Assembly (NCBI GenBank): GCA_008690995.1
Contig: VRMN01000003.1
Span: forward strand, 124,001-188,000
Direction: 5' to 3'
Length of the DNA: 64,000 bases
Source of the DNA: Porphyridium purpureum
Lineage: Eukaryota
The notes under the pieces are model-generated. The model worked only from the letters and a program-made list of their open reading frames with translations. It ran no database searches and was not told where the DNA came from. Below are positions 18,262 through 21,648 of this stretch, piece after piece; the first letter of the stretch is position 1; the number at the start of each line of letters is the position of its first letter. The position numbers and the translations under genes are program-made.

Positions 18262-19482
18262 TCACTCGCGTGTGCCAGTTCTTGCCTTCTTCGGCTCGGT
18301 GGCTGCATCTCCCGATTCTGACGATTCGCCGTGCATGTCAAGCGATCTGGAAGAACGTGCCTGTGGGCTCGCGACCGCTAACTGCAGCGATCGCTTCGGA
18401 GCACGCGCCGGCGAAAACGTTGAAACTGGCCTCACGGCATCGTGATGAAGATTCAGAGCCTGTGCACGTGGTTCCGCCAGGGATAAGTGCGAATGCAACG
18501 GCAACAAGTGCGGGTCCGTCACTGCTGTGTGCTGGGTTCTTGCTGATTTCTGCGACCGCTTTGGTGGCGGCAGAGTTTGCACCTCCGAAGACTGCATTCC
18601 AAACCGCTTTGGTTCAACGATCGCAAAGCGCGTCTCTGGCTGCACCGATGCAGGGTCTGTAGTCGCGTTTGAGGACAGCGGTACCTTTGCGGAAGAGGTC
18701 TCCGTAGCCCGCAGTGCTGCGGTTCTGGAGCCAATCACCAAGTGTCTGCGACCGCTTTTCCAGTCCCGCTTGCGAAAATTATGAAACCAGTTCCTCACTT
18801 GAGCAATCTCCAAACCCGTGTCCTGAGCCAGTTGGTGGCATTCCGGGTCTGACGGATACGGGTGGTCATCATGCGCGTCGGCCCATTCTCGAAGTAACGA
18901 CCTTGAGTCCGGGATGACGTTTCTTTTGGCCTCGTTCAACGTCTCTGCCTTCGAAAGCTTGGCGACCGCGGCATGAAAGCACTCACGTAGCATTCTGTCT
19001 TCGGCCGGGGAATACCACGTTGCATTGGGCACCATTTCTTGCACCAGCTCGAGCACGGTATCTTTGCACGCGTGCTCACATTGCGCAAGAATATCGTCCA
19101 GTCTTTGCTGGAAGACGTCCATTGTCTGGGGCGCAACTCCGGAGGACAGTTTTAGTCCTAAACCGTTGCCAGCCACAGTTGACGGTAAGACCTCTGGGTG
19201 CGCGTCTGCAATAGAATGATTCTCGAACCCCCTTTCCTCAGCACCCTGTCTCCTACCATTTCTACCAGCCCGGTCACCATCATCGATGACACTTCTAATC
19301 CTTTCCAACTCATTTGCATCCGAACCGACACGCGCTTGTGCGTCGTCCGCTGGACGAGGTTCACCATCCGATGCGTGCGCCATGGAAAGCTGCGTCAATG
19401 TGTCTGCGTCTCTCGCTGATCCTGGTGCTGAGGTGTGTCGCCCTCCGCAAACATCAGCCTGCGTCCTGCCACCCCGCTCCAT
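18262..19482 (-). CDS. TALE-class homeodomain transcription factor, KNOX-like helix 3
   Basis: [46 protein letters not shown]. Confidence 0.88.
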
Positions 19483-20100
19483 TATGCTGGACTTGCTCGC
19501 CTGGCCTCACCGCGCCTCGTTTCTCGCGCTCACGTCGCTGCAGGTCACAACCTTTTCTTTTGAGACTAGGCTGACTCGCTCTATTAAAACAACATTGTTT
19601 TAGTATAAACATGAACTAGTCTCGATGTATGGAACGAGGCAGCTGGGGTCCAACGCTGACTGGGGTTGTTGCGTCGGGGCCAAGTGGCGCGCAGCCCTGA
19701 AAACGAAGCCGCCGCGCCGTGGCACTACTGGGTAGGGAGCGCGCCGCAAGAACCCAAACGTTTTGATGATTGAACATCTTGCTTTACTCCACACCGAACC
19801 AATAGCGGTCAGATCAGCAACAACACTCCTTGCCGGGCAAGCGAGTGTCTTGCGTCCAACCCTCGCCTACAACACTGTGCTTGTTATATTGCCTCGGGAC
19901 AGCACGTTCCTCGACCTCCACTCTACACTGCGCCCGGTCCACGCGCCCGCAGCAACCATCAGCCTCCGCCGAGTCCCGCAATAATGTTCGTAACGTGCTC
20001 GCCCACGTTACGTTATTCCAGCAGCCAAAGCAACCGAAAAGCCGACATCCTCGCGGCACTGTCGTGCGGCCTCGAGAGGAAGACGTGAGAACGGGGAGCG

Positions 20101-21648
20101 ATGTTTGACGTGGCCAAAGAAAGAGACGCGCACGCAGTGGCAATGATGTGCGAGCGGGCGCCTACCGCAGTGAGTGAGCGCGTCACGCATCGCGGCGATG
20201 AAATTAACGCGGGCTTCGATTCCTGTTTGCCAGATGAAGACGAGGCGTCGCAGCAGACGCAATGGCAGCTGAGAAGCCACACCGAGTACAAGCGTAGCAG
20301 GAGTGTTCGTCAGCATGAAAGTGCACATCAAGCCACCGCGAGGCACGCGCTCCCACGGTACCCCATGCTTCCTTACCAGTGCACGTATCAAGCCAACACG
20401 TCATGTGCCAACGCCTGGTTCTGGTATCCGACGCCGTCAGAGACATATGAGTACTCGCATACTCGTCATGACAATGAGCCTGCGCATCTGAAATATGCCT
20501 CTGGGCATCTGCGCGAGCTTGGAGTTTTGACACAACGTGGTGTCGGCTACCAGCCAGTGCCAGGCAAAAGAGCTCATGAAGCGCCACCGTGCCAGTCAGG
20601 TGGACTGCATCCTGGCCCAGGACGTTTCCAGTGCTCCAGCTTTCCTCACACTCCATACCTTAGGGGTTTTGCTTATGCTGCAGGACCGCAACTTGAGACG
20701 CGGCTCCCATTGTCGTTCGCGCGAAATGACGGAGCTGCTCACTTGGGTCATGGGACTCTAGAAGGCGCTTGTGAAGATCATGACATGCTCAATTCGCCTA
20801 TCATGCACTGCAACGACTCTCGTCACCAGCAATCTGTTTACATTCCAGGAGGCCCTAGTGTCAGAAATCTAGATGGCCCCAGGACGCACGGCGCCATGCA
20901 GCAGTTCGATTCGGCAAAAATAGACACAGCCACGGCGCTTCTTTTCGTCGCACAGCCTCAGTTTCTCGCAGACATGAAAGAGCTGGCGCACACAATGCAC
21001 GCTCCGTCACGTGGAGGCACGCGTGAAGTTGAAGGCAACAAGATCAGCGACAGTGCATTCAGCTTGGACTCTCCACTATCCAATGCCCGTGACATCCACG
21101 GGCGCACGAAAGAAAAGGAAATCCGAAAGGAAAACCCAGGGACTGCGAAGGCCTCCTCTCAAACTGTGATGCAAAAAATGGAGGAAATCCGCACCGTCTT
21201 TCAAGCCGCTATCATCGAGGAACTGCAAGAGCAGTCAAAATGTCGTATCATCTCACCGGGCGAGGAAAAAGAACGACTGCTTGCCGTTGCGGCGATTGCG
21301 CGCGCACATGCAGTGCGTGGAGAAAATGTTAGAAAAATGACCAAGGATAACATGTTCAGTCGCGGGTTCTTGGGCTTGGCATCCAAGCAAGGCTTTTCCA
21401 AGGAAGCGCACTTCGAACTCTTCAAAGCCTTTTTCGACATGATCTTACACCCGTACCCTTCCTCAAGCGAATTTAGAGACATTGCGGAACGCGCAAACCT
21501 CGAGTACGGGCAAACCGTACGCTGGTTCCAGAATATGCGCAAGCGTCTTTGGAAACCCGTTGTGCTTGCACTCCGAGGGCATGCCCCCGAACCGGATGTG
21601 ACCAAGTGGAGGCACGATATCTTCCGTCCTAAGAAAAAAAATGCCTGA
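20101..21648 (+). CDS. TALE-class homeodomain transcription factor, PBX/BELL-like, with a PBC-like motif
   Basis: FSKEAHFELFKAFFDMILHPYPSSSEFRDIAERANLEYGQTVRWFQNMRKRLWKP; upstream LQEQSKCRIISPGE. Confidence 0.88.
   Translation: MFDVAKERDAHAVAMMCERAPTAVSERVTHRGDEINAGFDSCLPDEDEASQQTQWQLRSHTEYKRSRSVRQHESAHQATARHALPRYPMLPYQCTYQANTSCANAWFWYPTPSETYEYSHTRHDNEPAHLKYASGHLRELGVLTQRGVGYQPVPGKRAHEAPPCQSGGLHPGPGRFQCSSFPHTPYLRGFAYAAGPQLETRLPLSFARNDGAAHLGHGTLEGACEDHDMLNSPIMHCNDSRHQQSVYIPGGPSVRNLDGPRTHGAMQQFDSAKIDTATALLFVAQPQFLADMKELAHTMHAPSRGGTREVEGNKISDSAFSLDSPLSNARDIHGRTKEKEIRKENPGTAKASSQTVMQKMEEIRTVFQAAIIEELQEQSKCRIISPGEEKERLLAVAAIARAHAVRGENVRKMTKDNMFSRGFLGLASKQGFSKEAHFELFKAFFDMILHPYPSSSEFRDIAERANLEYGQTVRWFQNMRKRLWKPVVLALRGHAPEPDVTKWRHDIFRPKKKNA

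Follow-up and report, generated by a model that had tools for sequence, protein, structure and literature searches.

The heterodimer of GSM1 and GSP1 in Chlamydomonas provides a mechanistic model for the subject of this study, a pair of divergently transcribed TALE homeobox genes of the KNOX-Red1 and PBX-Red (BELL-related) classes in a 64,000-nucleotide stretch of DNA (referred to as the window) from Porphyridium purpureum, a single-celled red alga. The Chlamydomonas genes belong to the same orthogroups as the Porphyridium pair, yet they are expressed in opposite gametes (PMC9565259) and, judged by their identifiers (Cre08, Cre02), are located on different chromosomes. Genes of the same two classes, KNOX-Red1 and BELL, regulate the life cycle of Galdieria, where cells of either mating type express both and where deletion of either blocks the haploid-to-diploid transition (PMC9565259). 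Unlike the Porphyridium pair, these are single-copy genes with canonical homeodomains, and they are far apart in G. partita.

A closer arrangement is seen among the Cyanidiales, where KNOX-Red1 and PBX-Red lie near each other and outside the mating-type region; in C. merolae the two genes, CMR153C (minus strand, 384980–385942) and CMR176C (plus strand, 430250–431335), are divergent on one chromosome and 44.3 kb apart, while those of Cyanidium (g2409/g2423) and Cyanidiococcus (g552/g565) are 13–14 gene numbers apart (PMC13353863 and its supplement). These distances leave no common promoter, in contrast to the candidate shared promoter of Porphyridium. The candidate mating-type region of Cyanidioschyzon is itself marked by a divergent spacer, between GCS1/HAP2 and a leucine-rich repeat (LRR) receptor-like gene (PMC13353863), unlike the window, where neither of these families was encountered among the 44 open reading frames (ORFs) scanned. 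In Bostrychia moritziana (10.1101/2025.02.11.637652), the only two TALE genes of the species, one PBX-type and one KNOX-Red1, occupy one homologous chromosome pair, PBX being carried by U and KNOX-Red1 by V, within non-recombining regions of 12–13 Mb; such a split is not seen in the window, as both Porphyridium genes lie on a single molecule and contig. Finally, the HD1/HD2 locus of basidiomycetes, including that of the homothallic Phaffia (PMC4915694), also consists of two divergent homeodomain genes of dimerizing classes. Both Porphyridium genes are, however, TALE genes, and neither divergent alleles nor a recombination block was found. Because the lineages are unrelated, the likeness is at most one of convergent layout, and of the fungal parallel drawn in a first-pass annotation of the window the divergent pair of unlike homeodomain genes holds, while divergent alleles and a non-recombining unit were not found in the sampled runs.

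We favor, with a probability of roughly 0.58, the reading that the head-to-head KNOX-Red1/PBX-Red pair, which is near-identical in every sampled strain, encodes products that likely heterodimerize and that would serve as a life-cycle switch rather than as a mating-type determinant. The features on which this reading is based are as follows:

18262..19482, minus strand: KNOX-Red1 TALE gene, 406 amino acids, intronless (Homeobox_KN match; Porpu_4494.3 of Joo et al. 2018; KNOX orthogroup; groups with plant KNOX).
18943..19131, minus strand: predicted two-helix region before the KNOX homeodomain, approximately residues 118–180 ('KN-B/elk' in Joo Table S2; low-confidence model; structure matches).
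18751..18939, minus strand: KNOX homeodomain, residues 182–244, with N47/H50/K54 (Homeobox_KN match, alignment).
19483..20100, no strand assigned: shared upstream region, 618 bp, candidate bidirectional promoter (polymorphic 25-bp insertion; two polymorphic sites, 19893 and 19968).
20101..21648, plus strand: PBX-Red (BELL-related) TALE gene, 515 amino acids, intronless (Homeobox_KN match; Porpu_2095.1 of Joo et al. 2018; BELL orthogroup).
21160..21345, plus strand: PBL (PBC-B-like) domain, approximately residues 354–415 (match to an animal PBC profile).
21373..21561, plus strand: atypical PBX homeodomain, residues 425–487, with A19/M23/F31/R47/Q50/K54 (alignment, homeodomain tree).

The ORFs and the 618-bp gap between them bear out the divergent pair with HPYP motifs, and with start codons about 620 bp apart in a unicellular red alga, that the first-pass annotation had reported. 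Both genes display the hallmarks of the TALE superclass, i.e., a three-residue loop followed by PYP (DDH-PYP in KNOX and ILH-PYP in PBX, both containing HPYP) and a WFxNxR helix 3, which in the plus-strand PBX protein reads WFQNMRKRLWKP. The Homeobox_KN model (PF05920) matches KNOX with 45.2 bits and PBX with 26.1 bits, both above the curated cut-off of 24 bits, and the solved structures nearest to the two homeodomains are those of MEIS and Exd/PBX. Exact sequences of both proteins are contained in public protein sets. The head-to-head join is not an assembly artefact, since independent contigs bridge the spacer: one contig of sequencing run X2 covers positions 16742–25000, and thereby both genes, while one of run X5 covers 19436–24989. 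Six of the 26 neighboring gene pairs in the window are divergent, the other five being spaced 82–974 bp apart; the 618-bp spacing is ordinary for the window, whereas the placement of a KNOX gene beside a PBX gene is not.

On sequence evidence, the minus-strand gene is of the KNOX type and the plus-strand gene of the PBX/BELL type, i.e., they represent complementary TALE classes, with a PBC-like domain recognizable only in the plus-strand protein. We take Cre08.g375400 and Cre02.g109650 of Chlamydomonas to be GSM1 and GSP1, respectively. The former is a member of the KNOX orthogroup and the latter of the BELL orthogroup in rows of PMC6374488, where plant KNOX genes share a group with Porphyridium contig_4494.3 and plant BELL genes with contig_2095.1. 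For P. purpureum, nine TALE genes are listed by Joo et al. 2018 (PMC6219170, Table S2), namely three KNOX-Red1 and six PBX-Red, among which Porpu_4494.3 is KNOX-Red1 (KN-B/elk) and Porpu_2095.1 is PBX-Red (PBL-Red). These are the same proteins as those of the window, the 400 residues in the table and the lengths being in agreement, but the two genes are listed there on separate contigs. Contig_4494.2 is the plastid GAPDH and contig_2095.12 a syntaxin (PMC6374488), and because these neighbors fit the gene order of the window, the older assembly evidently broke between the two genes, whose linkage was therefore invisible in it.

The class assignment is supported by a profile comparison, in which the region ahead of the PBX homeodomain obtained 16.0 bits against 14 animal PBC regions, a score reached by none of 300 shuffles, compared to 0.6 bits for the KNOX protein. 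Across four PBL/PBC profiles the PBX protein scored 16.0–29.4 bits (0/300 shuffles each) and the KNOX protein 0.5–1.7 bits, these scores being somewhat circular as the profile members were chosen by a search with the PBX region itself. Structure matches (Atlas) link the KNOX protein to plant KNOX with a TM score of 0.54 over approximately 120 residues, and helices preceding its homeodomain are present in a low-confidence model; the Pfam KNOX2 and ELK models did not match it at E<=10. The KNOX-Red1 class is defined by KN-B and ELK regions ahead of the homeodomain and by the lack of KN-A. In a 25-row homeodomain tree, KNOX is sister (91/83) to the only plant KNOX row included, while PBX pairs with the paralogue FVE85_8639 (100/98); the long branches of both render their placement unsure. 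The closest paralogues of the pair are FVE85_8639 and Porpu_2271.2. Orthogroups, PBL comparison, tree and Joo Table S2 thus agree with the first-pass assignment of one KNOX-type and one BELL/PBX-type gene, and the homeodomains fall in different classes, with the uncertainty of the long branches. The two homeodomains share 20 of 63 residues and the regions preceding them show no relationship (as many as 473 of 2000 shuffles reached the observed score), which rules out a recent inverted duplication. Single-sequence folds are of low confidence (predicted local distance difference test values of 52 and 53), and a fold search with these models returned homeodomain matches alone, none at E<=0.001. 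Word-index homologue searches yielded no relative beyond the query, and the cluster partners of the PBX protein, P0009–P0011, were discarded as unrelated short peptides.

The adjacency of the two genes is unlikely to be due to chance: for three KNOX and six PBX genes among approximately 9,900 genes in random order, the chance of any KNOX being located beside any PBX is about 0.4%, and that of a head-to-head placement 0.09%. The linkage in the Cyanidiales has a chance of about 0.5–0.6%, for a genome size that we take to be 16.5 Mb. The two classes are close together in three of the four Cyanidiophyceae genomes in the supplement of PMC13353863, the exception being Galdieria. Linkage in other red algae, which the first-pass annotation had named as a check, is accordingly borne out in part: the genes are close in Cyanidioschyzon, Cyanidium and Cyanidiococcus and sex-linked in Bostrychia, but apart in Galdieria. 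The genes and their classes had already been catalogued, while their head-to-head linkage is apparently unreported; no statement on the neighborhood of red-algal KNOX-Red1 and PBX-Red was found in the full texts searched, including PMC6219170, PMC13353863 and the Bostrychia preprint, with subscription literature and some supplements outside the search.

The surroundings of the Cyanidiales KNOX and PBX genes contain orthologues of Galdieria g3483 and g3491, which are near KNOX g3492, and of g6597, which is near BELL g6599 (OG0001328–OG0001346, PMC13353863 supplement), hinting that both Galdieria segments may derive from one older linkage group. In C. merolae a second homeobox gene, CMR152C, which is not classed as TALE, directly adjoins KNOX-Red1 CMR153C. 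Four species of Gracilaria have a male-limited homeobox gene (OG0003259) in common, the class of which is unstated (PMC12502185) and would be predicted to be KNOX-Red1.

In the proposed life-cycle switch, the KN-B/ELK helices of KNOX would bind the PBL helices of PBX, by analogy with Chlamydomonas GSM1/GSP1, animal MEIS/PBC and the Galdieria knock-outs, and the KNOX two-helix region and the PBX PBL domain are the likely dimerization surfaces. The resulting dimer would gain nuclear entry and DNA binding and would then turn on diploid genes, thus taking the cell from the haploid to the diploid state. Observations from Pyropia and Cyanidioschyzon suggest that KNOX would be induced at a particular stage and would limit dimer formation, the shared upstream region would likely hold both genes together, and the linkage was perhaps inherited from the red-algal ancestor.

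Several points weigh against such a switch. Three KNOX-Red1 and six PBX-Red genes allow for many possible pairs, so that the neighbor need not be the dimer partner, and four other PBX-Red paralogues are located on two other scaffolds. The PBX-Red protein may bind DNA poorly, or may serve as a modulator, because the conserved W19, H23 and K31 are absent from its homeodomain. The three linked Cyanidiales represent a single evolutionary event, the gene numbers of KNOX-Red1 (g3492) and BELL (g6599) in Galdieria partita are widely separated (PMC13353863 supplement), and the KNOX and PBX genes of Cyanophora are on different contigs (PMC6374488 rows). An alignment-based metagenome scan returned 80 loci, in none of which was a second TALE gene or a match to any of 25 neighbor proteins of the window found, although two of them were PBX loci of the C. 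merolae type that extended over 10-kb flanks; a scan with a single protein as query gave no match. Furthermore, no demonstration of sex in P. purpureum was found in the literature consulted. Two further comparisons were not used: among six RNA-like runs KNOX occurs in short pieces and PBX in long contigs in five, but the depth of contigs is no basis for ranking genes, and those of PBX enter neighboring sequence; and the flat depth of DNA run X5 (156–183 for the cassette, 178–198 for its flanks) does not represent copy number.

It may alternatively be argued that the two genes are incidental neighbors, i.e., separately regulated members of a lineage-expanded TALE family for which no partnership is required. 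The nine TALE genes of the species, the ordinary spacer length, the lack of flanking genes in common with the C. merolae PBX locus and the unlinked Galdieria pair are consistent with this explanation, which is nevertheless unlikely in view of the low probability of chance adjacency, of the separate second close linkage in the Cyanidiales and of the different ancient classes of the two genes, as a result of which local duplication cannot explain their adjacency.

The recognition residues of both homeodomains are unusual, being N47/H50/K54 in KNOX and R47/Q50/K54 in PBX. The PBX helix 3, WFQNMRKR, departs from the canonical WFINxR, and A19, M23 and F31 replace the canonical W19, H23 and K31. Among 146 other matches with a readable helix 3 (of 150), R47 is present in three, Q50 in three and H50 in one. 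The legend to Fig. 2 of Joo et al. (PMC6219170) mentions two PBX-Red sequences that diverge at exactly the W19/H23/K31 positions, and the Porphyridium plus-strand gene is presumably one of these. As the unusual residues (H50; R47/Q50/K54) occur on long branches, a KNOX/PBX dimer would be expected to recognize a DNA site unlike that of canonical KNOX/BELL dimers. These rare residues would also suit a true linked heterodimer pair that had been redeployed, after expansion of the family, to vegetative functions (in stress, the polysaccharide sheath or the cell cycle) with new DNA targets, as would the diurnal rhythm of the paralogue contig_3408.5 in vegetative culture (PMC6374488) and the pieces of both genes in RNA-like culture runs. 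Such redeployment is, however, improbable, since the published functional data on both classes in red algae all point to the ploidy transition.

At the C-terminus of PBX, one additional base is inserted in run X20 shortly ahead of the stop codon, where an alternative frame is open for 90 codons (21641–21905), and the strain concerned may carry a longer PBX tail. That this tail is ancestral is unsupported, as chance alone would leave a frame open over this length with a probability of 8%, and it bears no likeness to the tail of the paralogue (183 of 500 shuffles score as high).

To the question of a mating-type locus, the polymorphism of eight of the 24 listed sequencing runs (20 holders), originating from eight studies, is directly relevant; the run search recovers near-identical DNA only, and the cultures may trace to few isolates. 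Both genes are covered at least in part and are near-identical in all eight runs, with a divergence of at most 1.5%, and no second diverged allele was detected across them at 80% likeness, the sole other piece on PBX being helix 3 of a paralogue. In the most divergent run, X20, the PBX side differs at 36 of 2359 sites, compared to 40 of 6127 in the flanking genes (p=3e-4); this rate (1.5%) is not above that of the adjacent non-coding DNA (36/1807, 2.0%; p=0.28), nor does it differ from that of a nearby gene for a DEP-domain protein (1.0%; p=0.24). The KNOX side of X20 differs at four of 505 sites.

Among ten single-nucleotide polymorphisms (SNPs) of those listed, all four allele combinations occur in 17 of 45 pairs, five of these inside the cassette, and the SNPs at 19893 and 19968, which are 75 bp apart in the spacer, show all four at good depth. 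Some KNOX-side calls derive from contigs with a depth of 3–8, and a heterozygous culture would mimic recombination if its contigs were mosaic, a situation that would likewise exclude hemizygosity. Either the cultures are heterozygous with the cassette on both homologues or the cassette recombines, and each of these alternatives speaks against a locus that is hemizygous or frozen. Two runs contain an insertion of 25 bp at 19693, and DNA run X5 has single-base contig breaks at 17580 and 19435; together with the four-combination SNPs these features (17226–19968) suggest heterozygous diploid cultures. The sampled strains show no sign of a mating-type locus and their polymorphism is ordinary, so that the multiallelic or hemizygous locus envisaged by the first-pass annotation is not supported, given the near-identity in 8/8 runs, a divergence not exceeding that of nearby non-coding DNA and the SNP combinations. 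A basidiomycete-like locus, at which each haploid would carry its own KNOX/PBX allele pair and at which non-self but not self pairs would dimerize and activate the diploid programme after fusion, could account for the divergent layout of two dimerizing classes (as in the fungal HD locus, PMC4915694), the long branches of both proteins and the excess of differences over flanking genes and one-base insertion on the PBX side of X20, and a very divergent allele would escape a near-identity search, but the same polymorphism data, along with the location of the candidate mating-type region of C. merolae at GCS1/HAP2 on another chromosome (PMC13353863), make it very improbable.

The shared upstream region has no match to an Rfam family, and no Pfam domain was detected in short frames scanned at 19223–23186 outside both genes. 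A transcript start near 19785 was rejected, as the runs disagree: coverage starts at 19782 and 19787 in two of them, but at 19684, 19848 and 19979 in three others. Approximately 50 bases each at 19794–19846 and 19902–19951 are matched at 84–90% by two other X2 contigs and by none in DNA run X5, and an ATG at 19984 starts a 34-codon frame that closes ahead of the PBX start. The gap between the PBX stop and a convergent ubiquitin-like gene (21649–24049, 2.4 kb) is the longest of the window; it is covered by RNA-like contigs, has no Rfam or Pfam match and is 2% divergent in X20. On the other side, a plastid-targeted GAPDH gene (16756–17949) is convergent with KNOX at a distance of 312 bp, and the DEP gene, two genes from KNOX (14739–15980), encodes a protein in which the DEP (Dishevelled, Egl-10, Pleckstrin) domain occurs twice; a Rhodophyta-specific 'Pleckstrin domain-containing' gene is a U/V gametologue in Bostrychia (10.1101/2025.02.11.637652) and may be compared with it. 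Two CHRD-domain genes are located in tandem at 1729–3727.

Green algae, plants and Galdieria have in common a haploid-to-diploid switch formed by dimers of the KNOX/BELL type, the genes for which are linked to sex in Bostrychia. The Porphyridium pair and the looser linkage in the Cyanidiales suggest that KNOX and PBX were neighbors early in red-algal history, a starting point from which the U/V arrangement could have arisen in a simple way. A bolder proposal, which is tentative and on balance doubtful, is that the red-algal ancestor carried a head-to-head KNOX-Red1/PBX-Red cassette that has remained intact in Porphyridium and was loosened to 44 kb in the Cyanidiales, and around which the florideophyte U/V sex chromosomes arose by reciprocal loss (PBX on U and KNOX on V, as in Bostrychia). 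If this were true, the window would represent a proto-sex locus of red algae with a layout convergent with that of fungal HD1/HD2. For P. purpureum itself, the locus supplies two defined genes and a candidate promoter of 618 bp with which an undescribed sexual cycle of this widely cultured model alga may be sought.

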